Assembly (NCBI GenBank): GCA_963700285.1
Contig: CAVOXA010000014.1
Coordinates: 128,001-192,000 of the forward strand
DNA length: 64,000 nucleotides
From: an uncultured Chloroflexia bacterium
Lineage (GTDB): Bacteria > Chloroflexota > Anaerolineae > JAAYZQ01
Reading direction: 5' to 3'
Both the position numbers and the translations under genes were made by a program. Below are positions 10,637 to 47,405 of this stretch, in pieces. Under the pieces are notes generated by a model. That model was not told where the DNA came from. It did not search any database and saw only the letters and a program-made list of their open reading frames with translations. Numbering within the stretch: position 1 is the stretch's first letter; each line of letters starts with the position of its first letter.

Positions 10637-11884
10637 TCAGTCGCCAGCTCCCGTCCTGATCACCAGCAGCGCCATGTCGTCAAACTGTGCTGCCCCTGCT
10701 TGGAACTGGCCGACGCGCTCAAAAACCAGGTCACACGCTCCTTGGGCATCCATTGCGCTGGCAGCAAGCATGGTATCCTGGAAACACTTCACCCCAAAGA
10801 ACTCACCAGAGGGCGAGATGGCATCCGTGATGCCGTCGGTGTAGAGGATGAGCAAGTCGCCAGAACCCAGACACACAGCGACTTCCTCAAGTACCACCTC
10901 TTCGACGACGCCCAACGCCATGCCCTCAGCATCCAGGACCTTGCACTCGCCCAGGTCAGCCTGCAAGAGCAGAGGACGATCGTGACCGGCCCTGACGTAT
11001 TGAAGGAGGCCCTGCCCCACATCGAGGACTCCGTAAAAGACGGTGACAAACATGCCAACCTGGCTCATCTCCAGCAGCAGGCAGTTGACATTGAGCAGCA
11101 CGGACCGGGGCGAGGGGTTGCGTTGGGCTTCGGCCCGGATCAAACTCCGGGTGAGGGCCATGAACAGCGCCGCGGCCATGCCCTTGTCCGACACGTCGGC
11201 CATCACCAGACCCACACGCTGGTCGCCCAGGGGGAAAACGTCATAAAAGTCACCGCCTACCTGCCTCGCGGGCCGGTAGCGGGCCGCACATTCCAAGCCC
11301 GGCAGGCGCGGGAATGCGCGGGGCAGGAAGCTGTGCTGGATGCCGCGGGCAAGCTCCAGCTCCCGCTCCAGGCGCTCCTTTTCCACCAGTTGGGCCTGAG
11401 CCTCCTCCAGTTCGCGAAAGGCCCGGGCCAGCTCCTCGTTCTTGCGCTGCAGATCGGCGATCATCTGCTGGTCTGACTCCCGCAGCCGGGCGCTGAGTAC
11501 CTGCATCGTACGGTACATCAACTGGGGCTGTTCCGACAGCAGGGAGTTCATGCCCGCTTCGGAAAGCTCCAGCAGCGTCGTGGGCTCCAGGGCGCGGATC
11601 GTGGCCGAGCGTGGCCGGCCGTCGACGAGGCCCATCTCGCCAAAGATCTGCCCTGGACCGCGTCTGCTCAGGACCATCTCTTCAGCGCCCTGCCCTTTGA
11701 CCACTTCGACCTGCCCTTCCACGATTATGTACACTTCACGTCCGGCGGTTCCCTCCCGCACGATCGTTTGCCCCGGCGCAAAGCTCCGCTCCTGCGCTGT
11801 CTCGGCCACCCATTCTAGCAGCTCCGGTCCAGCACCTTTCAGAAAGGGTACCTGGATCAAGACCTCCCTATCGAGCCTGGTCAT
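10637..11884 (-). CDS. cNMP-binding domain + coiled coil + PP2C/SpoIIE-type Ser/Thr phosphatase
   Basis: FGEMGLVDGRPRSAT cNMP cassette; VGGDFYD, ADVSDKG, YTDGITDA, DDMA PP2C motifs. Confidence 0.92.
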   Translation of the reverse strand: MTRLDREVLIQVPFLKGAGPELLEWVAETAQERSFAPGQTIVREGTAGREVYIIVEGQVEVVKGQGAEEMVLSRRGPGQIFGEMGLVDGRPRSATIRALEPTTLLELSEAGMNSLLSEQPQLMYRTMQVLSARLRESDQQMIADLQRKNEELARAFRELEEAQAQLVEKERLERELELARGIQHSFLPRAFPRLPGLECAARYRPARQVGGDFYDVFPLGDQRVGLVMADVSDKGMAAALFMALTRSLIRAEAQRNPSPRSVLLNVNCLLLEMSQVGMFVTVFYGVLDVGQGLLQYVRAGHDRPLLLQADLGECKVLDAEGMALGVVEEVVLEEVAVCLGSGDLLILYTDGITDAISPSGEFFGVKCFQDTMLAASAMDAQGACDLVFERVGQFQAGAAQFDDMALLVIRTGAGD

Positions 11885-12286
11885 GCGTCCTCACTCAAGC
11901 TACGGCCAAAGAACACCTTGCCCTCCATCCCCTGCCGGTGCACGGCCTGACCTGGTGCCCGGATGCCAGGCCGGTGTTGATGCCGACCCGCACACCAAAG
12001 CCATGGAGGCCGCGGTTTCGCTCCCGATGTGTCGTGTACTCTTGCGCACCCTTATGGCTACCACGTCACAAGCGTCCAGGGCCAAATCGGCCCAATCGCA
12101 GCTTCAACCTGTATTGGGCAGCAACGTCAATTGAAAGTATACCACAGTTGGGGGGAATCTACCACTGCCGAGAGACCATGCCAAACTGGACCAGTCTGGC
12201 ACGCAGGTGGCATTCTCGTTCACACGGTATCCTAGCCGCGAGGGCTTGTTGCTTTCAGGGTAACAGAGCTGATCTGGTCTTTCGAG

Positions 12287-15200
12287 TCAAGCCACGCGCT
12301 GCAGGTCCAGCAACCGCCTGCTTGTGTCGCGTTCAAGCTGCCGGCCCACGTACAGGTGCTCGCTGACCAGGCGGTCGAAATCATCTTTGGTTAAGGCCAA
12401 TACGCGTGTCGGCGCCAGGGCCGTGACGGTGGCCGTACGAGGAACTTGAAGCAAGAGCGCGATCTCGCCCACGTACTCGCCTGGCCCGCGCTCAGCAGCG
12501 ACGCGCAGCTCGCCATCCTGGCCCACGGATACCTGTACCCGCCCCGACTCGATGACATAGAAGGTCTCCCCCATCTCACCCTGGCGCATGAGGGCTGCGC
12601 CAGGCTCGTAGGTCTGGGCTTGCAGTTGGGCAGCGACGAGCCGGAGCTGTTGGGCGCCCATCTCGGCAAAGAGCGGTACGCGCCTCAGCAGTTCCACCTG
12701 GGTTATGGAGCGATCCACCTTGTCCCGCAGGGCAAAGCGAGCTTTGACCAACTGTTCAAAGTCGCGGCGGCTCAAGGACAGCAACTCTGTGGGTATTGTC
12801 GTCCGGCATGTGGCGTTGCGCGGGGCATCGTGCAGCAGCGCCAGCTCGCCAAAATAGCCCCCTCGGTCCAGTTGGTTCACCACCTCGGAGACTCCTCGTT
12901 CGTCGCGCTGTGTCACCTCGACGTGCCCGTGCCGGACGATGAAGAACCGGTCCCCGCGCTCACCCTGGCGGATGACGGCCCGGCCAGGCCCGTGGTGCTC
13001 TACCCGCAGGCGGGAGCAGACCAGGTCAACCTCGGCACCGTCCATGGTAGCGAAAAGGGGCATGCGCTGCAGCAGGCGCCTGTAATCCTGCTGTACAGTC
13101 TGAAAGTCAGCACTCAGGCTCTCGGCCCGCTTTACCTCGCGGAACAGGTATTGGACTCCGATCTCCCGCTCCTCCCAGGGCAACCCATCGTAGGCCCGCT
13201 GCAGAGACCGCACCGCCAGCTTTTCCCCTACCTCCTCGGCGGTCAGGTCCAGGAGCAGCCCCAGCACGGCAGCATAGATCTCGCCCTGCTCGATGAGGGG
13301 GCGCTCCGAGACTGTGGCCTCCTCGACCTGCCCTGCGACGATGCTCACCGCCCAGCCAGCGGCCAGGGCATAGTTGTTGAAACGCTCCACCAGGTTGCGG
13401 GCAGCCCGGTCGCCGGCAATCTGGCGGAACTGCTCCACGAGGTCGGACACAGTCCAGCCCAGGGCCCTTTGCAGACGGCGCCCGTCGCTCAGGTCAACCA
13501 CGGCCCTGGGTTGGTCGCTCAGGAGGGCGATGGACCTGAAGGCCAGGTGGTGGAGCAAAAGCCCTCCAGCCAGGAGCAGATAGGCAAGCAGCGGAACGCG
13601 GCCGGTGAGCGCCGAGACCGCCATTCCTCCCAGGCTGAAGATCAGCAGCGTCCAGGCCGGACCAAAACTCGTCCGCCAGAAAGAGACCAGGGTAGGCGCC
13701 ATCAGGGCCAGTGTCAGCAGCGGGAGCAGCCAGCCGCTGACGGTCAACAGCGCCCCGGCAACCGTAGGGCTGGCCTGCTGCTGTCGCGCGACCAGCCACA
13801 ACACCAAGCCGTAGCTTCCCGCCAGGCCAAGGACCAGCAGGGCCTTTCCCATCCGGCTCATCTCTTTGAGCTTCGCGCCGGAAAACAGGAGGAGGCCGGC
13901 CACGGCCAGAGCGCCATAGGCCAGGTAGGCCAGACCGATGGCGACAGGTGCGACGAGAATGGGCAGCACAGGCTGCCCTTCTTTCACCGCAATCGCCCCG
14001 GTTCCCACAAGTCCGATCAGCACAAGACTCGGCACAAGAGCCAGGGAAAAGAGCCCTATCAGCCAGAACACAGGCGACAGGCGGGATCCTGCATAGTCGG
14101 AAGCAATGCGCCAGGCGAGAAAGGCGGCAATGCTCAGAGCAGCCACGCCGATAACCGGGGTCAGCGCCCGGTAGGATAAGGCAGCAGGTACCAGGCTGAG
14201 CGCGACTGCGGCAGCCAGGAGCAAGGCAGCCACATTCCAGGGGTTGGCAAAGAGGCCCTTCCGGGCCGCCCAGAGCACAACCTTGCGGACCATGCTTAGC
14301 AGGGCCAGGCCGATGGATAGGACCAGGAGCAGGCTGAGGGCCGCCAACCCCAGGGCAAGCAAGATCCTGCCCACGCCGCCGCCCCGAGTCCACAGGTCGC
14401 GCAGCGCCCCAGCCAGCCGCCGCTGCCAAAAGTAGGCGCCCATCAAGATGGCGTAGGCGGTCCAGGCCGCCGACAACAGGCCAAAGACAGTAAAGATCTT
14501 TTCCTCGCGGGAGAAGGAGGGCAGGACGCCTTTAGGGCTGGCCGAGACTTCGGAAGTCTTGGAGACTTCCGAAGTCTGCTCTTGCCGGACAGCCTTGACC
14601 TTTTCCCACAAACCACCCCGGATAAAGGCCAGCGATTTGCGCCGCAGCATGGGGATGTCGAGCCAGTCCATGAGCAAGTAATAGCCATCCAACTCTAGCA
14701 GGGGATTGAGGTTGAAAAAGACCGTCAGGTAAGACAGAAAGGCGAACTGGAAGAGCAGGGGGTTCAGCGCGAAGGCAGGCCAGAGAAAGAGTACGATACT
14801 GGCCAGGCCTCCCAGGATCAGACCCGAGTAAGGGCCCGCCCAGGTGACGGCCAGGCGAGCCCGTTTGCCCTCCAGCCAGATGTCGGTGGTATCCACGAAA
14901 AAGGCGGGCATGCCAAAATAGATCATAAACCCGCCGCGCCGCACTTCGCGCCCATAGTGCTTGACCGTCAGGGCGTGGGCCATCTCGTGGATGAGGACGG
15001 CGAACAGGTTGGCCACGATCAGGCCCATCATGCCCAGCGCGATAGAACCGGCGATGGTCACCACGCCGTACTGTCCCCCGCGCAGGGCCTGGACAAAGGC
15101 ATAAAAGCCCAGTACCGTTACGAGCAGGTAGAGGATCAGCACCGGTCGGGCGAAGAGCAATCCACCGACCCGCCGATAGACACCACTCAACGCGCGATCC

Positions 15201-15682
15201 AGGCCACCGATGGTGAATTGCCTTTGCAGAAAAGACTGCCAGACCCGGGCCAGACGGTATTGGGGACGGCGTCTCAGCAGGCGGCCCCGCACCCGCTGGT
15301 AGACGTTGACCGGCCGCTCGCTGAGCAGCAGGCCAGCTTTGAGCCCCTCTACCAGGGCGGCCACACGAGCAAAGGCAAAGGAACCATATTCAAGAAAGTA
15401 GGCAACGACCAGGTCCTTGACCGTGCGGCGGCCATCCATCCGCTCCCACAAGAAGTGGTCCCGGTCGCTCAGGCGGTAGTAGGTCTTGGTGGCTGGATTC
15501 TTCAAGACATAGTACACGCCATCGCGCCCTGTCAGGCGGCTGGCTATCACGCCCGGCGCCGCCTGGGGTCGGTATTGGGCCATCTCCAGCTTTTCGTACA
15601 GCCAGGCCTTCAGGCCCAGCCAGCCCTGATCGGGCTGGCTGGTCTCTTGCCGCAGCGTGTCCCAGAGGGAGGTTGCTTCCAT
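12287..15682 (-). CDS. Fusion: PqqD/RRE-like domain + M50 zinc metallopeptidase + multi-TM block + two cNMP-binding domains
   Basis: N-terminal YYVLKNP..YYRLS..FLWERMDGRRTV (PqqD-like pattern); HEMAH, AGP, NLNPLLELDGYY (M50); FGELALLHDAPRNAT and VGEIALLLQVPRTAT (cNMP). Confidence 0.85.
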   Translation of the reverse strand: MEATSLWDTLRQETSQPDQGWLGLKAWLYEKLEMAQYRPQAAPGVIASRLTGRDGVYYVLKNPATKTYYRLSDRDHFLWERMDGRRTVKDLVVAYFLEYGSFAFARVAALVEGLKAGLLLSERPVNVYQRVRGRLLRRRPQYRLARVWQSFLQRQFTIGGLDRALSGVYRRVGGLLFARPVLILYLLVTVLGFYAFVQALRGGQYGVVTIAGSIALGMMGLIVANLFAVLIHEMAHALTVKHYGREVRRGGFMIYFGMPAFFVDTTDIWLEGKRARLAVTWAGPYSGLILGGLASIVLFLWPAFALNPLLFQFAFLSYLTVFFNLNPLLELDGYYLLMDWLDIPMLRRKSLAFIRGGLWEKVKAVRQEQTSEVSKTSEVSASPKGVLPSFSREEKIFTVFGLLSAAWTAYAILMGAYFWQRRLAGALRDLWTRGGGVGRILLALGLAALSLLLVLSIGLALLSMVRKVVLWAARKGLFANPWNVAALLLAAAVALSLVPAALSYRALTPVIGVAALSIAAFLAWRIASDYAGSRLSPVFWLIGLFSLALVPSLVLIGLVGTGAIAVKEGQPVLPILVAPVAIGLAYLAYGALAVAGLLLFSGAKLKEMSRMGKALLVLGLAGSYGLVLWLVARQQQASPTVAGALLTVSGWLLPLLTLALMAPTLVSFWRTSFGPAWTLLIFSLGGMAVSALTGRVPLLAYLLLAGGLLLHHLAFRSIALLSDQPRAVVDLSDGRRLQRALGWTVSDLVEQFRQIAGDRAARNLVERFNNYALAAGWAVSIVAGQVEEATVSERPLIEQGEIYAAVLGLLLDLTAEEVGEKLAVRSLQRAYDGLPWEEREIGVQYLFREVKRAESLSADFQTVQQDYRRLLQRMPLFATMDGAEVDLVCSRLRVEHHGPGRAVIRQGERGDRFFIVRHGHVEVTQRDERGVSEVVNQLDRGGYFGELALLHDAPRNATCRTTIPTELLSLSRRDFEQLVKARFALRDKVDRSITQVELLRRVPLFAEMGAQQLRLVAAQLQAQTYEPGAALMRQGEMGETFYVIESGRVQVSVGQDGELRVAAERGPGEYVGEIALLLQVPRTATVTALAPTRVLALTKDDFDRLVSEHLYVGRQLERDTSRRLLDLQRVA
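14545..14577. repeat. REP-like palindrome doublet lying in frame inside the M50 fusion gene
   Basis: AGACTTCGGAAGTCT-TGG-AGACTTCCGAAGTCT, read as QTSEVSKTSEVS. Confidence 0.8.
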
Positions 15683-15794: not shown

Positions 15795-16067
15795 CTAGAC
15801 GATCTTGAACTCCGGTCCCACCATAGGACCGGCGTCGACGCTGCCAAAGGCCACCATTCCGGCAAAGTCCATTTTGGAGATGCGCTCGTCCAGAGTACCG
15901 GCCAGCGTCTCCATGGTCTCTGCGTCAAGACTCTTCAGTGCGGCCACCTCCTCGTCCGTCAGCTCAAAGCCCGCCAGCGCCTCCTCGGGGCTGGCAAACA
16001 GAGCCTCGCGAAAGTCTTTCTCCAGTACTGCCTTGCCGATGACAGTTTCCACAGCTTCCTTGGACAT
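15795..16067 (-). CDS. NHLP-clan (Os1348/Franean1_4349-like) RiPP-type precursor peptide B, 90 aa
   Basis: AAAGGAG RBS; MSKEAVETVIGKAVLEKDFREALFASPEEALAGFELTDEE leader; leader ends LDERISK; 25-aa tail. Confidence 0.8.
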   Translation of the reverse strand: MSKEAVETVIGKAVLEKDFREALFASPEEALAGFELTDEEVAALKSLDAETMETLAGTLDERISKMDFAGMVAFGSVDAGPMVGPEFKIV

Positions 16068-16128
16068 GGTACACGCTCTCCTTTTCTTGAGTTTGGTCTC
16101 TCGGCCTGATGGGCTCAAATCTGACCTC

Positions 16129-16194
16129 ATTCTACAGCACAACCGGGCTCCTGTCTATGACCGCCTTCACAGGCTGACTGTGACCTGCGTCACA
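16129..16194 (-). promoter_or_regulatory. CRP-dependent promoter of precursor B: -10 plus two CRP boxes
   Basis: -10 TAGAAT (16134-16129); TATGA-N6-TCACA 16156-16171; perfect TGTGA-N6-TCACA 16179-16194. Confidence 0.85.
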
Positions 16195-16201
16195 GTATCG
16201 C

Positions 16202-16822
16202 TCAGCGGCGACAACCAATGTCCGCCAGCAGAACTTCTAGGGCCGCGATGTTCCGCTGCTTTCCCGTCCCGCGAAGGGCCCGCGCTGCCCCGGTAAAGTA
16301 GGTGTGTTCTCGAAGGAACTGGAGTTGGCGGCGATACCAGGCTTCCTTACCCAGCCGCACACCGTGCGCCGCCCACTCGGCACGCAGCGCCTCACTCTGA
16401 ACCAGGCCATCCTCCCGCCCCAGGCTATCGAGGTCAGCATCGGCCAGGATCTCTTCTAGGGACGTAAGGGGTCGCTGCGGCAGCCTGGTGGCCAGGATCA
16501 GCCCCTGGACCACGGACACCTGTTTTGGCGTGAAACCAAAGCAGGGCAGGACCAGGACCACGATCTCGGCGCCGGCCCGTTCGTGGTCGTGGTACTGGAA
16601 CAAGAATCCAATGTCATGATAGGCCGCGGCGATTTCGATGAGCCGGGTCTCATCCTCATCCATGCTGCTGGCCGCCGCCAATCGCAGGGCTGCGGGCAGC
16701 ACGTCATCGTTTGTATGGGAAAAGTTGTGGTAGGTCAGTTCCGGAGCCAGTTCGCTTTGCAGGCGGTCCAGCGCATAGCGCTTGGCAGCCTCAAAATCGG
16801 ACTGGCGGTGAGGGTAGCGCAT
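16202..16822 (-). CDS. HD-domain metal-dependent phosphohydrolase
   Basis: YHNFSHT, AAAYHDIG, ADADL motifs; start could be further upstream (ORF to 16909). Confidence 0.88.
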   Translation of the reverse strand: MRYPHRQSDFEAAKRYALDRLQSELAPELTYHNFSHTNDDVLPAALRLAAASSMDEDETRLIEIAAAYHDIGFLFQYHDHERAGAEIVVLVLPCFGFTPKQVSVVQGLILATRLPQRPLTSLEEILADADLDSLGREDGLVQSEALRAEWAAHGVRLGKEAWYRRQLQFLREHTYFTGAARALRGTGKQRNIAALEVLLADIGCRR

Positions 16823-17157
16823 GGCTTCCCGGCCAGCTCCTGCCCACGGCTCTCCGCTCAGAATCTGCCAGCCGGTCACGGCCTCCGGATCCGTTCCCTG
16901 GATAGCCATTGCGCAGGAATGCAGATCATTGGACGCTCACGCGGCAGCCCTCGCCCTTCGCTGCGCATCGACCGCAGTCCACGCATGGGATCCATGTGCG
17001 CTGGAGGGCGCACTTGGAGGCCCGCCCGAGCTTGGCGCAGGAAAGGCACGGGTCTGTGACCCGGCCTGAGGGAATTCGGACGGGCGAGCCGGTGTCATTA
17101 GCCGGCACAGGTGCCGGGGGAGGGAATGCGGCAGCACATGAGTCCGATGCAGGTCTT

Positions 17158-17448
17158 CTATGTGACCTCAATCAGGGACGCCCTGCCCATGTCACCCGAC
17201 TCGCCGGCCCACAGCCCGTTCCAGCCGTAGCTGAGCACGCCCTGGTAGTCACTCTTGGAAATGCGCTCGTCCAGGATGCCGGCAAACGACGCAATGGCCT
17301 CGGCATCGATGGTCTTCAGAGCGGCTGCTTCCGCCTCGGCCAGGTCGTAGCCGGCCAGTGCCCGGTCGGGATCTATGAAGAGGAGGTCGCGGAACTCGCG
17401 GTCCAGCACTGCCCTGCCGATAACGGCCTCTACGGCTTGCTTTGACAT
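17158..17448 (-). CDS. NHLP-clan (Os1348/Franean1_4349-like) RiPP-type precursor peptide A, 96 aa
   Basis: AAAGGGG RBS; MSKQAVEAVIGRAVLDREFRDLLFIDPDRALAGYDL leader; LDERISK; 31-aa tail; collinear with precursor B. Confidence 0.8.
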   Translation of the reverse strand: MSKQAVEAVIGRAVLDREFRDLLFIDPDRALAGYDLAEAEAAALKTIDAEAIASFAGILDERISKSDYQGVLSYGWNGLWAGESGDMGRASLIEVT

Positions 17449-17532
17449 AGGATTCCCCTTTCTTTCAGGCCGGTCCCGCCCCAGATCGCGGGCGTACCTG
17501 CTACAGCCCCATCGAGATCGCTAACTGGTACG

Positions 17533-17598
17533 AGTATAACGCACTGCCGGACTGTGGGCCATGAACTGCGTCACATCGTTGCTGTTAACTGGGTCACA
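17533..17598 (-). promoter_or_regulatory. CRP-dependent promoter of precursor A: -10 plus two CRP boxes
   Basis: -10 TATACT (17538-17533); CATGA-N6-TCACA 17560-17575; TGTTA-N6-TCACA 17583-17598. Confidence 0.8.
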
Positions 17599-17616: not shown

Positions 17617-17658
17617 CAAAACGAAAGGGATGGAAACAGCAGAACCGTTTCCATCCCT
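17617..17658 (-). terminator. Rho-independent terminator downstream of the CRP gene
   Basis: AGGGATGGAAAC...GTTTCCATCCCT 12-bp stem, then TTCGTTTT on the minus strand. Confidence 0.7.
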
Positions 17659-17776
17659 CACAGGCACAGCACCGTCTATTTGCTTATGACAAGATCATCT
17701 CGCGCTTCAGAGAGTGGCCGGGCTCTCCCCCCTGAGCGGCAACAGGGTTGGCGGCTTCGCAGGCGTCTCGGTCCCA

Positions 17777-18478
17777 TCAATACAGGATCCTTCTCTCCAA
17801 TCCCTGCCGGTCCAGAATCGTGACCCGATGCCCCTCGATCTCGATCAGCCCCTGGTCCCGGAAGGCGCCCAGTACCTTGTTCACCCTCTCCCGGCTGGCT
17901 GCTACCCAGGTGGCCAGCTCGGTCTGGGTCAGGCGGAGATCGATGGCGACAGTCTCATTGCCTTGCTCCCCTTCCTGTCCCTCCCGCCCGTAGCGCTCGG
18001 CCAGCTCCAGGAGCTTGGCCGCTACCCTGCCATAGACGTCGAGAAAGGACAGGCTCTCAACATAGGCAGTGGTATAGCGGACTCGGGCGCTCAGAACCTC
18101 CAGGATGCTTCTGGCCATACCGGGGCAGGATTCCAGGTGCCGCAAAAAGTCGTCTCGGCTCAGGGTCAGCGTCACCGTCTTTTCCATGGCCACCGCCCCG
18201 GCCGAACGCGGCAGGCCGTCGAGCAGTGCCAGCTCACCAAATACCTCACCGGGGCCGTAAACGTTGACCGAAATCTCCTGACCAGACTCGCTGATGATAA
18301 AGATGCGGACCTTGCCCGATTCGATGACGTACAGACTGTGGCCCCGGCCGCCCTTGTGAAAGATGATCATCCCCTTGCCAAAGGTGCGTTTCCCCAGGCT
18401 GCCGGCCAGGGTCTCCAGATTTTGGTCAGAGACTCTGGCAAAGAACGAAACGTTCCGAAGCTGATCCACCTGGGACAT
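17777..18478 (-). CDS. Crp/Fnr-family cNMP-binding transcriptional regulator
   Basis: FGELALLDGLPRSA cNMP cassette; LTQTELATWVAASRERVNKVL HTH with CRP-type R-E recognition residues. Confidence 0.95.
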   Translation of the reverse strand: MSQVDQLRNVSFFARVSDQNLETLAGSLGKRTFGKGMIIFHKGGRGHSLYVIESGKVRIFIISESGQEISVNVYGPGEVFGELALLDGLPRSAGAVAMEKTVTLTLSRDDFLRHLESCPGMARSILEVLSARVRYTTAYVESLSFLDVYGRVAAKLLELAERYGREGQEGEQGNETVAIDLRLTQTELATWVAASRERVNKVLGAFRDQGLIEIEGHRVTILDRQGLERRILY

Positions 18479-18879
18479 TCACACCTCCCGCGCGCGCTGC
18501 AAGCGATTGGAATGCTCCTATTCTAACACACAACAGCAGAAAACAAAACCACTACTCTCATTTCCCGTGTCGCCGTGGGTCGAAGGCATCCCGCGGTCAA
18601 TCGCCCACAAAGTCTAGGGACGTCGTCAACAGCGCACAGTGGTCGCACTCAAGCTCCCGGCCTAGGGCCCAGGTCAAGAACACGACAAGCCCTGCCCGAT
18701 ACCCCACTGAATGTTTTCGAGCAGCGTCGCGCTTGAGAGAAGGCGCAGGATCGCCCCGGCGATGGCGACCACCAGGTCCAGGGCTGTGATGGCCTGATTG
18801 GTCGGATAGATGGGGTCGATAGGGGTGCGTCCCGGGGCGTTACGTCACTCGGCTTCGTCGTGTCGCACCTCTTCGATTG

Positions 18880-19481
18880 AGATTCACCTGCTGGTGTATC
18901 CACTCCGGCACCGGATAGCGGTTGAGGTGATGCTTGAGCAGGGTTAAGGGCACGATCAGTGGCACCAGCCCCTGCCGGTAGTCCTCGATGAGGCCCAGGA
19001 GTTCCTGCTTATCTTCGCTGGAGAGGTCATTCTTGAGGTAACCCATCAGGTGCTGGAGCACGTTCACATGCTTGCCCCGCGTGCCCAACACGGCGAGGCC
19101 CTCCATCAATTGAGCGCCGTACTCTGCGGTCAATTCGTCCCAGTCCCGCTTGCCCGCATCGGCGACCAGGCGGCCCATCTCAGTGTAGTGTTTGGGACTA
19201 TGGGCCATCAGCGTCATCTTGTGCGCCGTATGGAACTTGACCAGGCCACCTGGCGTCGGCTCCTCGTCTAGCATTCGAGTCCAGCGATAGTAGGCGAACA
19301 CCCGCTCGACAAAGTTCTCGCGCAGCGGCAGGTCGTTGAGCCGTCCCTCCTCCTCCAATGGCAGCAAGGGGAACCGGTTCATCACCTCTCGGGGGAACAT
19401 GCCCGTGCCGTTGCGCTCGGCCATGCCATGTGGATTGTACACTTTCACGCGAAATAAGCCTGAACTTGGCGAATCCTTCTT
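18880..19481 (-). pseudogene. DUF1722/YbgA-like gene fragment, copy A (truncated at both ends)
   Basis: KKDSPSSGLFRVKVY...LKHHLNRYPVPEWIHQQV; near-identical to 22738-23424 but lacks start and final residues. Confidence 0.85.
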
Positions 19482-19602
19482 ATAAGACTGGACACAAACG
19501 ACAAATCCAGCTGGCCAATGAACTGACTCTGACAACTAGAATCAAGCTCCGGAGGCTCTGCGACTGAGACCTGTTACTACGCGTGGTCGGCTCCAGAGAT
19601 AG

Positions 19603-20676
19603 CTATGCCCCAGACTCAAAAACCTCTGCCGCGCGGCGCATCTTGGCGATGATATCAACATCAAATGGGCAACGCTCGAGGCACACCTCGCATTCGATGC
19701 AGTCCGATCCCGTAGCCGGGAGCGACGCATACCACTCCCGATTCGCCTGCTGGTGAAGCGGCGTAAGTCCGTAGTACTCGACGTAGTTCAGATAGTAGAT
19801 GACGCTAGGAATGGGGATGTCCTGTGGGCAGGGGAGGCAATGTTTGCAGCGCACGCACTGCCCGCGGAGCCAGTACTTGAGATCGTCGTGCAAAGGGGTG
19901 GCCCGTTTCTCCTCCGCGGATGCCGTCAGATAGCTGAGGGCCTGCCGCGTCTGATCGGCATTCCGGGGGCCGGGCACGGCAGCGGCGACTCCCTGTGACA
20001 GGACATAGTGCAAGCACTGGGCCGGCGTGATGCCGGTCGGGGTGCCATCTCTCTGCAACAGCACGCCACCGTAGTAGGGCTTCATGGCGACGACGCCAAC
20101 CCCGTACTCTGCGCAGGTCTCCAGAAGTGCGGCTCGCTCCGGGTCCCCGTGGTGTTGATACAGATTGACCGGGAACATGAGGACATCGATGAGGCCCGAT
20201 TCGATGGCCATGCGGGCCACAGCCGGATTGTGGTTGCTGAGACCGATAAAACCGATCCGCCCGTCGCGTCGGAAGCGATCCAGTCGTTCGATTCCCTGCG
20301 CCGCCCAGTTCTGCCACAACGATTCGGTATCGACCATGGTGAGCATTGCGATCTCAGCGTAGCCGTTTCCCAGGAGGCTGAGTGCCTGATCGAAGCAGCG
20401 CTGGCAGCGGTCAACCGGTTCGTGGTAGATGAACCCCCAGTGTAGGCAGAGCACCAGACTCTCGCGAAATCGGCGAATGGCTGGGCCGATAGCCTCCCAA
20501 TAACCGGCATGGCTTTCCAAGGGGTCGTTGTAGACCAGATCGATGTAGTTCACGCCCGCTGACAGGGCTAGGCCGAGCACTGCATCCATGTTCTCAGAGC
20601 TCTCGATCAGGTGCTCAGTGCCTAGCCCGATCACACCGACCTCGAGTCCTGTCCTACCCAGAGTTCTGGTTTCCAT
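19603..20676 (-). CDS. Aldo/keto reductase with C-terminal 4Fe-4S dicluster
   Basis: RTLGRTGLEVGVIGLG, GVVAMKP; CVRCKHCLPCP and CIECEVCLERCP. Confidence 0.9.
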   Translation of the reverse strand: METRTLGRTGLEVGVIGLGTEHLIESSENMDAVLGLALSAGVNYIDLVYNDPLESHAGYWEAIGPAIRRFRESLVLCLHWGFIYHEPVDRCQRCFDQALSLLGNGYAEIAMLTMVDTESLWQNWAAQGIERLDRFRRDGRIGFIGLSNHNPAVARMAIESGLIDVLMFPVNLYQHHGDPERAALLETCAEYGVGVVAMKPYYGGVLLQRDGTPTGITPAQCLHYVLSQGVAAAVPGPRNADQTRQALSYLTASAEEKRATPLHDDLKYWLRGQCVRCKHCLPCPQDIPIPSVIYYLNYVEYYGLTPLHQQANREWYASLPATGSDCIECEVCLERCPFDVDIIAKMRRAAEVFESGA

Positions 20677-20878
20677 TCTTATCGCAGATTGCCCCCTATT
20701 CTGCTCGTCCAGCTTTCCTGTCCAATGGTAGACCGTCTAGCAAGTACCGAACAGAACACCTCTGCACAAGCAAACTGACCAGATGACCATGAAGAATCTG
20801 CTTGTAGAAGCACCCGTAGCTGGAAAATTCCAGAGATCCTTCAATGCGTCTCCTGGTGGGACTCTATGACCAATTGAC

Positions 20879-20907
20879 ATTGTATCATAGTCTCGCCCCT
20901 TGAGCAA
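20879..20907 (-). promoter_or_regulatory. Putative promoter of the aldo/keto reductase cassette
   Basis: TTGCTC-17-TACAAT with extended TG. Confidence 0.55.
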
Positions 20908-20939
20908 AACCACGTGTGCGGGGACTGGAATGCCACAAC

Positions 20940-21512
20940 TCAGGTGATGCTTCAGCAGCGTCAACGGCACGATCAGCGGCCCAGCCCCTGACGGTAGTCC
21001 TTGATGAGACCCAGGAGCTCCAGCCTACCTTCGGTAGGCCTTGTCATCACTGGAGAGATGGTTCTTTAGTAACCCATCAGGTGCTGGAGCACGTTCACAT
21101 GCTTTCCTCGCGTGCCCAGTACAGCCAGGCCCTCCATCAGCATAGCCCCATACTCGGCTGTCAGTTCGTCCGAGTCCCGCTTGCCCGCGTCAGCGACGAG
21201 GCGGCCCATCTCGGTGTAATGCTTGGGACTATGGGCCATGAGCGTGAGCTTGTGGGCGGTGTGGAACTTGACCAAGCCGCCTGGGGTAGGTTCCTCGTCT
21301 AGCATTCGGGTCCACCGATAGTAGGCAAAGATCCGCTCGATAAAGTTCTCACGCAGGGGCATATCGTTGAGCCGGCCTTCCTCCTCCAAGGGCAGCAGCG
21401 GGAAACGGTTCATGAGCTCGCGGGGGAATATGCCTGTCCCATTTCTCTGCGCCATTCCGTGCTCATTATACACTTTCACACGGAATAAGCCCGAACTTGG
21501 CGAATCCTTCTT
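20940..21512 (-). pseudogene. DUF1722/YbgA-like gene fragment, copy B (degenerate)
   Basis: ORF 21066-21479 matches full copy; frameshifted tail to PLTLLKHHL. Confidence 0.85.
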
Positions 21513-21627
21513 ATAAGACTGGACACAAACGACAAAAAGTCTTCATGCTAACGACCTGCATCCAAGTAATGGGAGAGGCCGAAATAGACTGAACACGTCT
21601 TATAGGTTGAGCAAAACGCAGATGAAA

Positions 21628-34816: not shown

Positions 34817-37800
34817 TCAATGCGGCTCGATGACCACATCCTGCCAGAACCAATTCCTGAGGGAGGAGGCGGGGCTCTTTTTCACCCAGGGCTTGACCAG
34901 CAGATGCCGGCGCATATAGATCAGGGGAAGTATCGCAGCCTGCTCAAGCGCGATCTTGTCTGCCTGCTGATACAGCACCATCCTATCCCGCTGATCTGTG
35001 AGACGCCTGGCCTTCTCCACCAGATCGAGAAACCCCTCGTGCTGCCAGCTCCCTCGGGTCCAGCGGCGCATGCCCACCCGCAGGGGATTGTCCGGGTCGG
35101 CATAGTCGGTGACCCACGCCCCGAGCCACATGTGGGGAAGCTCTTCGTCCAGCATACTGAGATAATTTGCCCAGTCCAGCGATGAGGCCAGGGTGACAGG
35201 AACCTCGAGGCTCTCCTGCCACATGATGAGGGGAACCTCGCCAAAAGGCTCCCTGCCTCGCCACACCGGCAGTTCAATCTCCGGGAAGCCTCGCCCACCC
35301 GGAAAGCCAGCCTCGGCCAGGAGAGCGCGCGCGCGGTTGAGGTCATAAGGCAGGCCGATATTCGGAGAATGACCAGGCATCGTCGGTGGTATTACTCCCC
35401 CGGTGGCCGGAAAATAGTGTCCCCGGAAGGCGACATCCGCCAGCGTCTCCCTGTCCGTAGCCAGGGCAAAGGCCTGTCGCACACGCACGTCGTCAAATGG
35501 GGGGCGGCTTGCATCGAAAGCGATGTGAAAGTGCCCCGGCACGGGGACCGATACGTATTCATCTGCAAGTCGCTGTCTCAGGCCCTCCACTTCTGGCTCC
35601 GGAAACCCCAAGGTCTCCAGGATGTCGAGATCGCCAGCCTCGTACATCTCCAGCTTGCGAGGCCATGCCTCGAGCGGAAGCACCCAAACCTCCACACGAT
35701 CTACGTTGCCTGAACAGAGACCATGATATCGACGATTGCGCGCCAGGACCAGCCGTTCTCCCGGCTGCCAATTCTCCAGCATAAAGGGGCCATTCGTCAC
35801 GATGTTTCCTGCTGCTGCCCAGGCATCGCCGTAGGCCTCCACGATGTGCCGGGGTACCGGCAAGAGGAATGGCAGCAACTGAAGGAAATGGCCGGTTGGC
35901 CGCTCCAGTTCAACAACAAGGGTTGTGGCATCCAGCGCCTGGATCGCCACTTGGTCCGGATCTGTTTCCTGACCCTGGTGGTAGGCCCGGGCTCCCCGGA
36001 TATCGTGCAGCCCCTGTGCAGCGGCCGATCCAGTCGCTGGATCCAGGATGCGCTTCCAGCTGTATTCAAAATCGTGCGCCGTCACCTGGACGCCATCGCT
36101 CCACCACACATCGTCCCGCAGGTGAAAGCGATACTTGCGGCCTCCTCCAGGACCTCCCAGCTCAGGGCCATATCGGGAACGATATCCATCTCCGGGGTCA
36201 GGATCGCCAGCCCGCTGAATAGATGCTGGATCACTTGGGCTGAGTCATCGTCGTTGACCGCAGTCGGATCCAGAGTGAGAAGGACCCCGATGGATACTCT
36301 GAGGGCATGGGGGGCAGGTCGCAACAGGATAGAAGGCTGTGGCCTTCCTGCCTTTTGCCACATGGCGAAACCGTCGTCGTAGGCCTGGCGGGCCTGGCGA
36401 AAGTCAAAGGCATTGTGGTGGGTCAGGCCCAACTTCATCAGCGTCCGGGCTGCCTGCTCATGGTCCCCACGCTCCTTGAGAAAAGCCAGCGCCCGCTCGT
36501 AGGCGCGGATCGCCTCCGGATGGGCGTACAGACCCCGCGCCCTGTCCCCTGCCTGGAGCAGATACCCCACAGCTTCGCCGCTGCGCCCGGCCAGCGCCAG
36601 GTGGTCGGCGATCAGACCCGTGTACTCGGCAACCCGCTCCCCACCCTGCTCCAGCAGCCAGTCGGCGACCAGGCCATGGTACACCCGCCGCTCCCGTCTC
36701 AATACGCTCTCGTAGCTGATCTCCCGCAGCATGTTGTGCTTAAAGATGTACTCCTGGGCATCCGCAAAGGTGGACGTCTCCCGCTGGAAGACCAGCTCTC
36801 TGCCCCGAAGAGCCGACAACTTTTCCTCCACCTCCGCGTCCGTTATCCCCTCACCGGCCGACTGGTTTATGCGGGCCACGGCCTGATCCCAGAACAACCG
36901 CCCCACCACCGACGCCTGCTGCAGCACCGTCCGCTCAACCGCCGGCAGGAGGTCCAACCGGGCCTGCAACACACCGGTCAGGGTGGGCGGCACCCGGACT
37001 TCCGCCAAACGCGCAGTCTCCAGCCGCCACTCCGTCCCACTCTTGACGATCACACCATCCTCAACGAGCATCTTGATCAGCTCTTCGATGAAGAAAGGAT
37101 TGCCCTCCGCCCCGGAGACCACGAGGTCGAGCAGCGCTTTTGGTGGGTGGTCCATCCTTCGCAGGATCTGGGCTACCAAGCGCCGGCTATCCCACTTGGA
37201 CAGGGGATCCAAGTCAAGGCGGCTGTGGAAGGGCTGGCCCTCACCCCAGCGAGGCCGCCGCTCAAAGAGCGACGGGCGCGCCGCACCGACGGTCATCACC
37301 GGCTGGCCTTCCAGGGCCAGGACCAGGTGGTTCACCGCATCCAACGAGCTTTCGTCCGCCCAGTGCAGATCCTCCAGCAGAACCAACACCGGACCCTGGG
37401 CAGCCATGCCCCGGAAATAATCAGCCAGGTTCGCCAGCCCCCGGTTGCGGACCTCCTGGGCATCGCTCAGCACGCCGTCCGGCTGTGGGCTTTCCCCAAG
37501 CTCAAACCCGAGCAGGTAGCCAATGAGATGAGCCGCGCTTTGACTCTCACTGGAGCCGCCCAGGGCCGCTGCCACGCCTGCGTCGAGCTTCTCTCGTACC
37601 TGTGCCGGCGGGTCACTGTCCAGGATCTCGAAGCGAAAGGCCAGCAGGTCACGGATCAGCCGGTAGGGCAGGTTCTGCATCTCCTGGCTGGCGCGCCCCT
37701 TGAAATAGTAAAACTGCTGGGGCAGCAACTCGGACCACAAGTCGAACTCATAGAGCAGCCGCGACTTGCCGACACCGGCCTCGCCGCTGACGGTCACCAT

Positions 37801-38761
37801 CTGCAGCTCACCGTCCTCCATCGCCGTGTAAAAGGCATCCTGCAGGCGCTTCAACTCCGCTTCCCGGCCCACCATGCGCGTCTCTATACCTTCCACGCCC
37901 CGTTCCGGCTTGCGAAAAGCCCTCGCTTTGGCCCGCTCCACCAGGTAGGTCTGGACTGGCACCGACCGGCCTTTGACGTGTAACGGTTCCTGGGGCTGGA
38001 CATCAAAGACGCCGCGCACATGACGGTAGGTATCGTGGCTGATCAGGATGCCGCCCGACGGCGCGTTCTGCTCCATGCGGCGCCGCCAGGTTGACCGCGT
38101 CACCCATGGCCGTATACTCGACCCTGAGATCGGTGCCCACTTCGCCGACGACCACCAGCCCGGTGTTGATACCCACCCGCACGGCAAAGCCCCGGATCCC
38201 GCGCTCCCGCTCCAACTTGATGCCGTACTCCTGAGCCCCTGCGATGATGTCCAGTGCAGCCTTGCAGGCGCGCTCCGGGTCATCCTCGTGGGCGATGGGC
38301 GCTCCGAAAAAGGCCAGGATGGCGTCACCCATCAGCCGAGCAACAGTTCCCTCCTGGCGATAGATCGGCCCCATCAGGACATCAAAGGCGCCATCCATGA
38401 TCTCGAGCCATTCCTCCGGGTCCAGCTCCTCGGCCAAAGCCGTCGAACTCTTGATATCGGAAAACAGAATCGTGACCATGCGGCGTTCGCGGCTCAGGCG
38501 ACCGCGGGTGGCCTGCAGCCGGTCGGCGTACTCTCTCGGTACCAGGCGGTGCAGCCGCTCTGCAACGGCATCGGAAGAGCCACTGGCTTGGACGTCCACC
38601 TCCGCCGCTATCTCGCCGCCGCACACGAAGCAAAAGCGTGCATCCGGATCAGGCGGCAGATCTGTTCCACACTGGGGACATACCAGGGACAGCTTGGACC
38701 CACACCTCATGCAGAAACTAGCGCCGTCAGGGTTCCATTTTTCGCATTGCGAACAGCGCAT
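34817..38761 (-). CDS. Zinc ribbon-class III nucleotidyl cyclase-AAA/STAND ATPase-TPR-peptide-binding (family 5) fusion, copy 2 (frameshifts near 38080 and 36130)
   Basis: CxxC ribbons; ILFSDIKSST, RLMGDAI, YTAMGDAVNLAAR; GEAGVGKS, LEDLHWAD; WSDGVQVTAHDF, PFDDVRVRQA. Confidence 0.85.
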
Positions 38762-43461: not shown

Positions 43462-46400
43462 TCAGTGCGGCTCGATGACCATGTCTTTCCAGAAGAACGC
43501 GCCCGACGCCGACCTGGGGCTGCTCCGGACCCATGGCTTGACCAGCATATGCACCCTCGGGTAGGAGAGGGGTAGGAGGGGCACCTGCTCGACCAGGACA
43601 AGTTCTGCTTGAGCGTACAGCGCCATCCGCTCTGCCAGGTCCATGGCACGCCGTGCCCGCTCGATGAGGGCAAAGTACTGCTCTTCGCGCCAGGCCGTGG
43701 CGCGCTGCACCGCCACGCGGAGGTAAGTATCCGGATCCGGGTAGTCAGGCCCCCAGGCCACCAGAGTCAGGTGAGGTGGAGCGTTGCGGACCCGGTTGAT
43801 GAACTCGGCCCACGGTAGGACCTGGTAGCCGATCTCTACCCCCAAGATCTCATGCCACTGCGCCTGCAGGTGCGGGGCCTGGGCCCGGAACCCAAGAGGT
43901 GCCAGCAACTCCACCTCAGGGAAACCCCTGCCGCCAGAATATCCGGCCTCTGCCAGGAGTTGCCGGCCACGCTCTGGGACGTACGGCAGGGCGATACCCG
44001 CCGAGTGTCCCGGCATGCCAGGCGGCACAAGCCCGCCGGTAGCCGGCTGGTAGTAGCCGGCGGAGGTGACGTCGACCAGTCCCTCCCGGTCCAGTGCATA
44101 GGCAAAGGCCAGCCGCACCCGGAGGTCGTCAAAGGGCGTGCGTGTCAGATCAAAGGCCAGGTAGCGGGTTAGCACCCCGGGTTGCGTTATGTAGTCCCCT
44201 GCCAACCTCCGCCGTACCCGATCCGCCTCTTTCGGGTCGTCAACATCCAGCCCGATGATATCCAGAAGATCGGCCTCGTACATCTCGAGAATAGAACGCC
44301 AATCCCCTAGGAGACCCAGCGGCAGCTCCACTCGTTGGACGTTGCCGCCGAACCGCCCGTGGTACCGCAGGTTGCGCACAAGTACCAAGGAGTTGCCCCG
44401 CTGCCATGAATCCAGTCTAAGGGGCCCATTGGTGAGGATGTTCTCGGGCTCCGACCAGGCTGAGCCCAGTCGCTCAACGAGGTGGCGAGGAACCGGATAC
44501 AGGGCGCTGTAGCTCAGCAGTGGCAGAAGGTATCCCGTCGGCGCCTCAAGCTCCACGGCGAGTGTGACGTCGTCAATGGCCATCACACCCAGGCCATCCG
44601 ACTTGGAGACGTGTCTATTGTGGTATGCCTTGGCCCCCTTTATGTCGTATAGCAGGCTGGCATTTCGGGATTCACTCGCAGGAGCCAGCACGCGCTTCCA
44701 GGCGTAGACAAAGTCATGGGCTGTCACCGGCACCCCGTCACTCCAATAGGCATCAGCCCGCAGGCGAAAAACAACCCTGCGCCCATCCCGGGAGACCTCC
44801 CAGCTTGCAGCCACGTCAGGCACAACGCCACCGTCATAGGTGAAATCCACCAGCCCACTGAATAGTTGTTCAACGAGATCGAGGGAACCCTCGTCAGTCG
44901 CGAATGCTGGGTCCAGGGTCAGCGGGTCAACGCCTGGCTCCCTGAGGGCATGGGGTGCAGGCGGCAGCGAAGCGGCAGTGGCGGCCTCTTCCGCACGGCG
45001 CCAGAAGGCAAAGCCCTCGTCATAGGCCAGGCGGGCCTGCTGGAAGTCAAAGGCCGCATCGTGCGTCAGCCCCAACCGCATCAATGTGCGCGCCGCTTGC
45101 TCATCCTCTCCTGCCTCTTTCAGGGACACCAGCGCCCGCTGGTAATAGTCCGTCGCCTCCTGGAGGGCATAGGCAAGCCTCGCCCGATCCCCTGCCCGCA
45201 ACAGGTACTCTGTCGCCTTCTCGACGTCACCGGCTCGCTCCCAGTGGTAGGCCAGCAAGCCCACCTGCTCCTCCACCCGCACGTGGAACAGTCGCTCTAG
45301 CGCCTCGGCCACCTGCCGGTGGAAGACACGCCGGTCTTTTATCAATAGTCCGTTGTAAGCTGCCTCCTGGGTCAGCTGGTGCTTAAAGATGTACTCCAGA
45401 TCCGGCAGCCGCGCTCTCTCACGTATCATCTCTTCCCGCTGCAGCGTCTGCAGCTCAGCGTGCAAATCGCGTTCCTCATGGGCGAGCTGCGTCAGCACCC
45501 GGCACAGAAAGAGCCGCCCGATGACCGCCGCCATCTGCAACACCCGCTTCGTCTCCTCCTCCAGCCGGTCGATGCGGGCCGCCAACACCCCCTGCAAGGT
45601 GTCTGGGATTGCGATCTCGCTCACCTCCCGCGCCGCCAGCCAGCGACCTGTCCCTACCTCTTGCTCGATGGCTCCCTCATCGATCAAGGAGCGCAGTACC
45701 TCCTCCAGGAAGAAGGGGTTGCCCTCGGCCCGGTCCAGGATTCTCTCCTTAAGCTCAGGGGGCAGGCATTCCATCCACAGCAGGTTTCCCACCAACCGCC
45801 CACTCTCAGCCTCGGACAGGGGATCAAGCCACAGATCGGTGTGCCGCTGTCCGTGGTCCCGGGCAGCCGTTTGCCTCAACTGCCAGGACTTGTGCGACCG
45901 CTCCGGGCGGAATACGCAGACGATCAACAGCGCGTGCCCTTCGGTGACGGCCAGCAGCTTTTCCAGCAACTCTATCGACGTCGGGTCCGCCCAATGCAGG
46001 TCCTCCACGACAAGCACCAGGGACCTTTCCCTGGCCGCAGATGCAACCAGCGTCTCCACAGCGCGGAACGTGGCAGACTTGAGCTCCCGGCCATCCAAGT
46101 GGCTCAGCCTGGCCTCCGACTCTTTTTCCAGTGGTAGGGACATCAGCGCGGCCAGGAAAGGGTAGACCTCATCAGACTGCTCAGGGTACAGGGCCTGGAC
46201 GCGTCCTCGCAGGGCATCCCCGACATCCACAGGACCGTCCCCCACGCGCACTCCCAGCAGCCCTCGCAGCAGATCGAGCCAGACAAGATAGGCCACGGAG
46301 CCACCGTAGGACAGACAGCGGCCCTCGACCCATTGGACCCAGCCTTGTGAAGGCTCCTTCGCAAGGCTTTGCTTGCGCAGCTCCGCCACCAGCCGTGACT

Positions 46401-47405
46401 TGCCGATCCCGGCTTCGCCTACGAGGGTCGCGATGCCGCCCGCCCCGGTCTGCAGGCGGTCCAGCGCCTCGGTCAGGGCAGCCAACTCTTCTACCCTACC
46501 CACCAGCGGAGAATCCAGCCCGGCGATGCCACGCAGCTTGCCGGGGGCATCCTCTGGCGCCAGCACCCGGTAGACGTCGACTCGCTCCATCCGGCCCTTG
46601 ACCTCAATTGGCCCTAGGGCCTCCGTCTCAAATAGAGGCGCGACCAGTTTGTGGGTGGCCTCACTGATCAGCACCGTGCCTGGCTCCGCCGCCGACTCTA
46701 TCCGCGCCGCCAGGTTCACCGCGTCGCCCATGGCCGTGTACTCGACCCGCAGGTCCGAGCCCACCTCGCCCACGACGACCAAGCCGGTGTTGATCCCCAC
46801 CCGCACGTTGAACCCCTGGACCCCTCGCTCTCGCGCCAGACGCGTTGCATAGTCTTGAGCACCCGCGATTATGTCCAGGGCAGCGCGACAGGCCCGCTCC
46901 GCATCGTCCTCGTGGGCAATCGGCGCGCCAAAGAAGGCCAGGATGGCGTCGCCCATCAGCCGGGCCAGCGTGCCCTCGTAACGGGTTACGGGCTCGATGA
47001 GGACGTCAAAGGCCCCGTCCATGATCTCCATCACGTCTTCCGGATCGAGTTCTTCGGCCATGGCCGTCGAACCCTTGACGTCACAGAAGAGGATGGTTAC
47101 CGTGCGCCGCTCACGGCCCACCTGGCCCCGCGAAGCCAGCAACCGCTCGGCGTACTCTTTGGGCACCAAGCCGTCTCAGGAGGCGGCCGCCGTTGGCCTC
47201 AGGCGCAGGCCGCGGTTCGCAGCCAGGGCTGCGCCAGTACCTAGGGCGGATGGGCAGCACGGTTCGCGCCGCAGTCAAGACAAAACCTGGCCTGGAGGGG
47301 CAGCTCAGTGCCGCACTGGGCGCAGATCAGACCAGCCTGGACCCGCACTTCAGGCAGAACTTGGCGCGTTCGGGATTTTCGGTGGTCGCAGCTCGCACAC
47401 TGCAT
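43462..47405 (-). CDS. Zinc ribbon-class III nucleotidyl cyclase-AAA/STAND ATPase-TPR-peptide-binding (family 5) fusion, copy 1 (frameshifts in N-terminal ribbon)
   Basis: Continuous 1235-aa ORF joins ILFCDVKGST/RLMGD/GDAVNLAARIE, GEAGIGKS/VEDLHWAD, GNPFFLEE and WSDGVPVTAHDF..WGPDYPDP. Confidence 0.9.

Follow-up and report, generated by a model that had tools for sequence, protein, structure and literature searches.

The window analysed here, 64,000 nucleotides of contig CAVOXA010000014.1 from an uncultured Chloroflexia bacterium (assembly GCA_963700285.1), carries a gene cluster with two small peptide precursor genes, A and B. Each is preceded by a promoter (promoters A and B) containing two closely spaced boxes of the kind bound by CRP, the receptor protein for cyclic AMP (cAMP). 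On the minus strand the order is crp, promoter A, precursor A, a gene for an HD-domain hydrolase, promoter B, precursor B, a gene for a protein of 1131 amino acids (aa) combining PqqD-like, M50 peptidase and two cyclic nucleotide-binding (cNMP) domains, and a gene for a cNMP-SpoIIE phosphatase.

Mismatches in the boxes were counted against the consensus TGTGA-N6-TCACA. Promoter B (minus strand) comprises a perfect distal box (16179..16194), a proximal box with one mismatch (16156..16171; TATGA-N6-TCACA), and a −35 hexamer TAGACA (16152..16157) lying 17 nt from the −10 hexamer TAGAAT (16129..16134; first T at 16134). In promoter A, on the same strand, the distal box (17583..17598) has one mismatch and the proximal box (17560..17575) two, and the −10 hexamer is TATACT (17533..17538; first T at 17538). 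When the first T of the −10 hexamer is set to −12, the boxes of both promoters are centred at −64.5 and −41.5, their cores span −72 to −57 (distal) and −49 to −34 (proximal), and transcription is predicted to start at 16122 (B) and 17526 (A). Position 16122 is an A following a C, in a column that is A in 31 of 32 related promoters (see below), and lies close to the ends of RNA contigs. This numbering, proposed in the initial annotation, agrees with the conservation of C at −1 and A at +1 and with the places where RNA contigs end, while the start site itself is a predicted one. The predicted class II position of the proximal box (−41.5) appears well supported by the spacing, which is invariant in the related promoters.

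The initial annotation had placed four boxes and two −10 hexamers, and all six elements were recovered at their coordinates on the minus strand. It had described promoters A and B as identical within diverged flanks. Their geometry is indeed the same, but their sequences differ (46 of 78 positions shared), and the divergence of the flanks is borne out by the 25 of 55 positions common to both outside the motifs. Two features had been overlooked. The proximal box of promoter B overlaps the −35 hexamer, the last 2 nt of the box being the first 2 nt of TAGACA-17-TAGAAT; and a terminator-like hairpin (17625..17659, minus strand), recognized by its match to the consensus, lies 3′ of crp and just upstream of promoter A. 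The two promoters contain the sole box pairs at spacings of 18–33 within the window. A chance origin of the pairs was considered and rejected, since none appeared in 100 shuffles of the sequence and a spacing of 23 bp dominates the genome and class searches described below.

The initial annotation had suggested a motif search upstream of homologous precursor genes. For this comparison, the peptidase of the cluster was matched against 401 genomes of the class (38 matches), and 38 regions were taken, 37 of them from matching genomes (G346 was left out). The best 80 of 164 genome loci and the best 80 of 160 metagenome loci were added, which, with locus L008 and the window, gave 83 distinct precursors from records titled Anaerolineae and other Chloroflexota. 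The search revealed a 23-bp pair of fixed geometry upstream of 32 of the 83. Among pair spacings between 17 and 40 in this set, 23 occurred 34 times, 34 three times and 32 once; a TAnnnT hexamer stood 21 nt past the proximal box in 32/32 promoters, any other offset being found at most three times. Other columns, on which no selection had been made, were also fixed (C at −1 in 27, A at +1 in 31, T at −35 in 30 and G at −33 in 31 of the 32), mean identity among all 32 promoters being 39%. The distal box was nearer to the consensus than the proximal one in 23 promoters, equal in 9 and worse in none. A conserved C-to-T change in the proximal box supplies the first T of the −35 hexamer (30/32). As judged from this alignment, the boxes are real and strongly conserved promoter elements.

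Since precursors A and B are paralogues (48% identical), the likeness of their promoters could be a by-product of gene duplication, with the boxes unselected. This is highly improbable: motifs and spacing have stayed fixed although just 25/55 positions outside the motifs agree, the layout is also found before unrelated genes, and conservation in the 32 promoters, in family f83 (see below) and in class-wide searches contradicts such an origin.

The distribution of the pair follows that of crp. Of the 55 distinct precursor loci, 28 combine crp with the pair. In 3 more, crp is present but no canonical pair occurs within 300 nt; in another 2, which contain the pair, the contig stops about 200 nt upstream; the last 22 contain neither (2 of these lack upstream DNA). 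In one of the three non-canonical crp loci the pair lies 500 nt upstream, with a 78-aa open reading frame (ORF) between it and the precursor; L084 and L089, which make up the remainder, have altered boxes. The geometry is present in 31/31 distinct crp-containing precursor loci (28 canonical, 1 shifted, 2 altered) and in none of the 22 loci that lack both crp and boxes. That the box pair tracks the neighbouring crp supports the local CRP as its reader.

Analysis of the whole genome (7.05 Mb) identified five pairs with at most 3 total mismatches at spacings of 16–45, four of them at 23 bp and one at 44. Two of the four lie in the window; the other two form a triple box with a 23-bp period on contig C5 (G000:C5 263677-263738; L008 ~8678-8739), placed between a paralogous crp (54% identical to that of the window) and a third precursor. 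The C5 cluster also contains genes for HD, MFS-cNMP and M16 peptidase proteins and for the same kind of M50-cNMP protein. Three-box promoters with this period were found in L008 and L055. With a leave-out matrix, from whose construction the window, its sister and C5 were excluded, the three cassette promoters scored 41–49 bits in a genome scan, the next score (20.5) being the reverse reading of promoter B. The other four PF14407 genes of the genome belong to a B12-radical SAM cluster without the box pair (G000:C1 1157000-1168000; L009), in which several B12-radical SAM genes accompany an M50 protein without cNMP domains and no boxes are present.

A single-box matrix detected one further strong site, G000:C15 209104 (minus strand; L247 ~9040-9104), with 27 bits. 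There, a single box and a −10 hexamer at class II spacing lie just 5′ of an ABC ATPase-like gene in a glycosyltransferase cluster, overlapping the end of the previous ORF. Tandem repeat arrays were also observed, at L008 6500-7950, just upstream of the C5 crp, and at G000:C4 113657-113970 (units of about 59 bp, each with a one-mismatch CRP-like box).

The layout is not private to this locus. An open-gap search of the 401 class genomes, in which spacings of 18–38 were allowed and the reversed pattern served as control, gave 32 matches in 22 genomes; the spacing was 23 bp in 28, and the control gave none. Family f83, from another Chloroflexota class, had 13 matches spread over 12 of 81 genomes, with 23 bp in 11 and again none in the control; the targets there are, from their translations, mostly predicted secreted proteins or lipoproteins plus one small double-glycine-type peptide, and a CRP 49–51% identical was found in 5/5 genomes tested. 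The 23-bp pair is thus a wider promoter layout of at least two Chloroflexota classes. In viral contigs, a mixed-taxon background (80 of 91 loci counted), 23 bp accounted for 7/80 matches (7/55 after deduplication) and spacings were spread over 18–38, so that 23 was not dominant. The same test in the phylum of G833 (0/79 genomes) was uninformative.

Within the class, other targets include SARP-like regulators, secreted proteins and, in one clade, a STAS gene upstream of the cyclase and crp. In L094 (4970-5545), and also in L086, L096 and L100, a second boxed promoter drives this STAS gene, which is preceded by a cNMP-PP2C gene; judging by this arrangement, the boxed STAS promoter might provide positive feedback and a link to partner switching. 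The small f83 peptide is a Cys/Gly-rich product of 93 aa with, on inspection by eye, a double-glycine-type leader (L246 ~9550-9835, minus strand), encoded 3′ of a 23-bp promoter.

The crp gene of the window (17777..18478, minus strand) encodes a 233-aa CRP-family regulator with an intact cNMP pocket and an R-E-x-x-x-K recognition helix; the helix SRERVNK given in the initial annotation is present. The window protein and nearly all cassette CRPs share the GEL..PRSA pocket and the RE..NK helix. The nearest solved relatives are proteins which, from their structure entry codes, we take to be GlxR and Rv3676. A candidate extended −10 promoter of crp was read from the sequence at 18520..18528 (minus strand); inspection of the sequence upstream of crp identified no CRP box that would suggest autoregulation.

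Two natural variants bear on the identity of the reader. In the CRPs of L084 and L089, R-G replaces R-E and the cNMP pocket is degenerate; these proteins may be cAMP-independent derivatives. In their three promoters both distances are kept and the boxes are changed: G4 is missing in 6/6 left halves, as compared with its presence in 64/64 canonical left halves. Glu181 of E. coli CRP reads the G4 base pair (PMC11253593), and the R-G helix together with boxes lacking G4 points to the local CRP as the reader. The R-G pair is nested in the cassette clade (support 98 in a quick tree). The regions concerned are L084 1340-2400 and L089 7950-8085; in L084, moreover, a lipoprotein-like gene is preceded by a second altered promoter, and a CHASE2 cyclase is encoded in the vicinity.

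The boxes could instead be read by another, global CRP/FNR protein, or without nucleotide, the neighbouring crp being incidental. Four more CRP/FNR paralogues are encoded in the genome, three of them with R-E helices; the f83 layout precedes genes far from their crp orthologue; and DdrI binds this consensus without cAMP. We consider such a reader improbable in view of the co-occurrence of boxes and crp, the co-variation of helix and boxes, and the presence of just three composite promoters in 7.05 Mb, each preceding an Os1348/PF14407 precursor within a crp cluster. The neighbouring CRP, predicted as the reader in the initial annotation, is well supported in that role by these comparisons, by an intact cAMP pocket, the pocket Arg being absent from all four paralogues, and by a spacing invariant in 32/32 promoters.

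Parts of the stretch were present in sixteen sediment metatranscriptomes, which may represent one campaign; eight were aligned, as contigs without a DNA control. Precursor B contigs (at most one differing letter) end at 16104-16111 in seven of the eight runs, 11–18 nt below the predicted +1; for run X11, no precursor B contig was among the matches listed. These ends agree with the predicted start of B and provide a weak hint in its favour. No precursor A piece extended above 17458 among the matches listed. Short RNA pieces between precursor A and the HD gene, within the HD gene and across the B boxes fit either read-through or DNA. The crp gene and most of the peptidase gene have no contig cover, which says nothing on their expression, and depth cannot rank genes.

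Precursor B (15795..16067, minus strand; 90 aa; seen in RNA contigs) consists of an Os1348/Frankia_peptide leader of 65 aa and a 25-aa tail, and precursor A (17158..17448, minus strand; 96 aa; seen in RNA pieces) of the same leader and a 31-aa tail. Both pass the curated cut-offs of NF038399 (84.4 bits for B, 74.6 for A) and PF14407 (66.2 and 56.9 bits). In this they resemble other Os1348/Frankia_peptide precursors, a leader family already known (PMC12353581, PMC8939145, PMC7726476). The tails in crp loci range from 3 to 323 aa without a common motif; those of 200–323 aa are short tandem repeats (L055, L058, L092, L093, L177, L190), and those of L110, L084 and L089 have just 3–8 aa. Radical SAM genes were found in 0/31 crp loci, and none was recognized among the ORFs that flank the cassettes of the window and C5; of the core-modifying enzymes, the cross-locus search covered radical SAM and not other classes such as ATP-grasp or YcaO. 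M16 and PP2C genes occurred in 14 and 10 of the 31 loci, respectively. In L143, a weak Os1348-like match (E 0.001) was seen from position 547, at the N-terminus of a long protein.

The 1131-aa membrane protein (12287..15682, minus strand) contains a PqqD/RRE-like domain, an M50-type peptidase with HExxH and NxxP..DG motifs, a membrane region and two cNMP-binding domains. It resembles the RRE-fused M50 peptidases of daptides (DapP/MpaP) and epipeptides (EpeP) in being an RRE-M50 fusion encoded beside leader-core precursors, and the processing role considered below is proposed by analogy with these enzymes (bioRxiv 10.1101/2023.03.08.531785; PMC10885120). In contrast to them, its family scores lie below both cut-offs (NF041824, 146 of 300; NF058609, 50 of 225), two cNMP domains are added, the precursor tails are highly variable and the crp loci lack radical SAM genes. 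A further cNMP-binding domain is fused to a SpoIIE/PP2C phosphatase (10637..11884, minus strand; profile and motif evidence). All three cNMP domains of the cassette other than that of CRP keep the GE..L..PR.AT pocket motif. Between phosphatase and peptidase genes lies a remnant of a cyclase gene (11898..12050, minus strand), at the place where the sister genome G263 has a long one, its second.

Cyclases are frequent around these clusters. Of the 16 loci with 3.5 kb or more of upstream DNA, 10 have a same-strand cyclase within the 3.4 kb that precede crp, and in other crp loci a cyclase occurs somewhere in 13 of 30, the genome background being 8 cyclase matches in 7.05 Mb. Most of these nearby cyclases are fused to an AAA domain and have at their end TPR repeats or an oligopeptide-binding domain (SBP_bac_5); in L092, the cyclase is part of a receiver-cyclase-HD fusion. 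The window contains two minus-strand cyclase-AAA(STAND)-SBP_bac_5 genes, one frameshifted in the assembly (34817..38761) and one intact (43462..47169). The former is the orthologue of the cyclase that directly precedes crp in G263.

Several further observations concern the surroundings of these genes. Some ORFs between the two cyclase genes (38875-43319) look, on inspection by eye, like those for peptide ABC permeases and a binding lipoprotein. At 3600-4700, RNA contigs of several runs share single-base indels relative to the window, which suggests assembly frameshifts and bears on the broken cyclase. The 16-kb stretch that is absent between cyclase and crp in G263 includes, at 18840-23740, three partial or whole copies of one gene, presumably YbgA-like, with a small PemK-like toxin-antitoxin pair between them. 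In L102, L103, L112 and L214, which lack crp and boxes, the gene directly 5′ of a short-tailed precursor encodes a double cyclase or a cyclase-STAND-TPR protein, and the precursor is divergent or convergent relative to the M50 gene.

The HD protein (16202..16909, minus strand; a shorter start at 16819 is possible) is encoded between the precursors. Its residues H31, H35 and D69 are invariant in 113 sequences, and it fits the H-X3-H-X25-35-D/E motif once. The predicted model (pLDDT 97) resembles class I phosphodiesterases (PDEs) with Z scores of 14.7–16.5 over about 190 residues, the match to PDE7A having Z 16.5 and a root-mean-square deviation (rmsd) of 2.9 for 191 aligned residues. The values were Z 17.5, rmsd 3.4 and 162 residues for 2pq7, the only entry found in a PDB sequence search, and Z 15.8, rmsd 3.0 and 176 residues for YpgQ. 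From the model, PDE activity of the HD enzyme is plausible. A locus of comparable content is cyaD1-clr-smc02178-spdA of Sinorhizobium meliloti, in which a cyclase, a CRP-like regulator, a target gene and a PDE-like gene are combined; there, however, a single Clr box lies at −61.5, the cyclase is receptor-like, and neither a peptide precursor nor a cNMP-binding peptidase is part of the locus (PMC4222275). The class III metallophosphoesterase of S. meliloti prefers 2′,3′-cAMP, which is a caution for the HD enzyme here (PMC4222275).

The reading that we favour, to which we assign a probability of roughly 0.6, is that the neighbouring cAMP-type CRP binds both boxes as two abutting dimers and cooperatively activates the precursors, in class II fashion, as part of a cAMP cassette. 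A cyclase near the cluster would make cAMP. The stronger distal box (−64.5) would help to load CRP onto the weaker −41.5 box, which overlaps the −35 hexamer, and cAMP-CRP would in this way switch on both precursors, the HD enzyme and the peptidase being expressed via read-through. The RRE-M50 protein, itself predicted to bind cyclic nucleotide, would then remove the Os1348-type leader and release the tail, and hydrolysis of cAMP by the HD enzyme would reset the switch. The outcome would be a self-contained cAMP cassette with a sharpened response resembling that of lambda PRM. Cooperative, switch-like activation, as put forward in the initial annotation, is the best inference from the layout.

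The promoter is, by its sequence, a variant of the class II and class III CRP promoters. Like the E. coli class II promoters galP1 and CC(−41.5), it has TGTGA-N6-TCACA at −41.5 over the −35 hexamer and a regulator with a cAMP pocket and a helix of the R180/E181 type; unlike them, it has a second, abutting box fixed at −64.5, and the C-to-T change in the proximal box provides the first T of the −35 hexamer. With the artificial class III tandem promoter ML(−74.5) it shares two CRP dimers, one at −41.5, but the spacing there is 33 bp, with RNA polymerase's alpha-subunit C-terminal domain (alphaCTD) between the dimers (PMC1874639), as compared with 23 bp here (28/32 class matches). The operators of phage lambda pM (PRM), OR2 at −34 to −50 and OR1 at −58 to −74, nearly match the cores of the two boxes, and the activating site is likewise loaded cooperatively (PMC1874639); the activator here is a cNMP-binding protein of the CRP family, so that the comparison is functional and implies no homology. 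By itself, E. coli CRP gives polymerase hardly any help from −64.5 (alpha 5.8, as compared with 763 at −61.5; PMC6301791), which makes it unlikely that the distal box persists as a class I site in its own right. The strong distal and weak proximal boxes, their near-OR1/OR2 coordinates and the occasional third boxes are best read as cooperative loading by abutting dimers.

The footprint of CRP is 22 bp. This figure bears on a second, unlikely reading, in which the same CRP occupies both boxes but the spacing serves to place alphaCTD between or beside the dimers, giving class III-like synergy, as at lambda pM, without CRP-CRP cooperativity. In the lambda pM case, alphaCTD occupies −54, with OR1 and OR2 on either side (PMC1874639), and the 7-bp spacer here is centred near −53; the weak contact of E. 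coli CRP at −64.5 also fits. Against this, the footprint leaves about 1 bp between the dimers, too little room if whiB1 of Mycobacterium tuberculosis is a guide (PMC2844151), the spacer lacks A/T-rich conservation, and a third box at the same period is more easily explained by dimer-dimer contact.

The whiB1 promoter, bound by Rv3676, is also the model for a band-pass or repressive logic, in which the strong distal box would activate weakly at low cAMP and the filled proximal box, or both, would damp transcription at high cAMP. Its adjacent CRP sites give band-pass behaviour, the upstream site is the stronger and aids occupancy of the downstream one, and the protein is, like the CRP of the window, of the GlxR/Rv3676 type (PMC2844151). 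Moreover, promoter B, in which the proximal box overlaps the −35 hexamer, has near-consensus −35/−10 elements (10/12) that could be active in the absence of CRP. We regard such a logic as quite doubtful. The whiB1 sites lie at −58.5 and −37.5, 21 bp apart, with the proximal one repressing (PMC2844151), whereas the layout here (−64.5/−41.5, 23 bp) is fixed over many loci and puts the proximal box exactly at the activating −41.5 position. In addition, the −35 hexamer of promoter A is poor, and among the 32 promoters this hexamer is weakly conserved past the first T and third G, which suits dependence on an activator.

Several points tell against cooperative activation in a cAMP cassette. The adjacent sites of whiB1 offer alphaCTD no space, and the proximal site is a repressing one (PMC2844151). 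The related loci are not independent, the cassette CRPs forming one clade in the quick tree (L084 on a long branch), and one crp-plus-boxes unit precedes a gene for a 456-aa beta-propeller protein, not a precursor. The R-G change is a single event, and the R-G loci keep the symmetric C in 5/6 right halves, so that it is not a simple loss of specificity. The nearest cyclase in this genome is 16 kb away and frameshifted in the assembly; the HD gene occurs in just 4/31 crp loci, and its fold ties PDEs with non-PDE HD proteins (uncharacterised HD proteins, YpgQ). Finally, the RNA data are contig ends only, and one 151-nt piece crosses the B boxes.

An extension of the favoured scheme, which we offer as a tentative possibility, is an autoinduction loop in which the peptide acts through cAMP. 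Once released, the peptide would be taken up and sensed by the TPR or SBP_bac_5 end of the STAND-type cyclase, and the resulting cAMP would drive cooperative CRP activation and hence more precursor (in one clade also cyclase and CRP), with the peptidase switched on and the HD enzyme resetting the system. The high variability of the tails, the abundance of STAND cyclases in these genomes and the boxed unit that drives a non-precursor gene argue against such feedback. If it exists, filamentous Chloroflexota would possess a quorum-sensing or excitable circuit relayed by cAMP, whose basis would be a lambda-switch-like CRP layout found in at least two classes.

A literature search, in which subscription papers and supplements (with possible regulon tables) were outside the scope, turned up neither this cassette nor any CRP pair fixed at 23 bp. 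The cAMP-controlled peptide-processing cassette of Chloroflexota is apparently undescribed. A strictly fixed distance between two CRP sites is known from MtlR-type CRP scaffolds, although there it is 43–46 bp, with room for a co-repressor (PMC13421365), and not 23 bp. Most known tandem CRP sites are spaced widely enough to accommodate alphaCTD or a co-repressor; a fixed, abutting 23-bp pair in two classes points to a CRP lineage that may act in the manner of lambda CI. Both specificity and cooperativity can be tested directly in vitro with the natural R-E and R-G variants and their changed boxes.

The promoter defines a cassette in which regulator, peptidase and phosphatase all carry predicted cNMP-binding domains. 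Anaerolineae have many STAND cyclases and Os1348-type precursors that are unexplained, for which this cassette may offer a role, and it would tie second-messenger signalling to ribosomal peptide output in an abundant, unstudied group of sediment and sludge bacteria.

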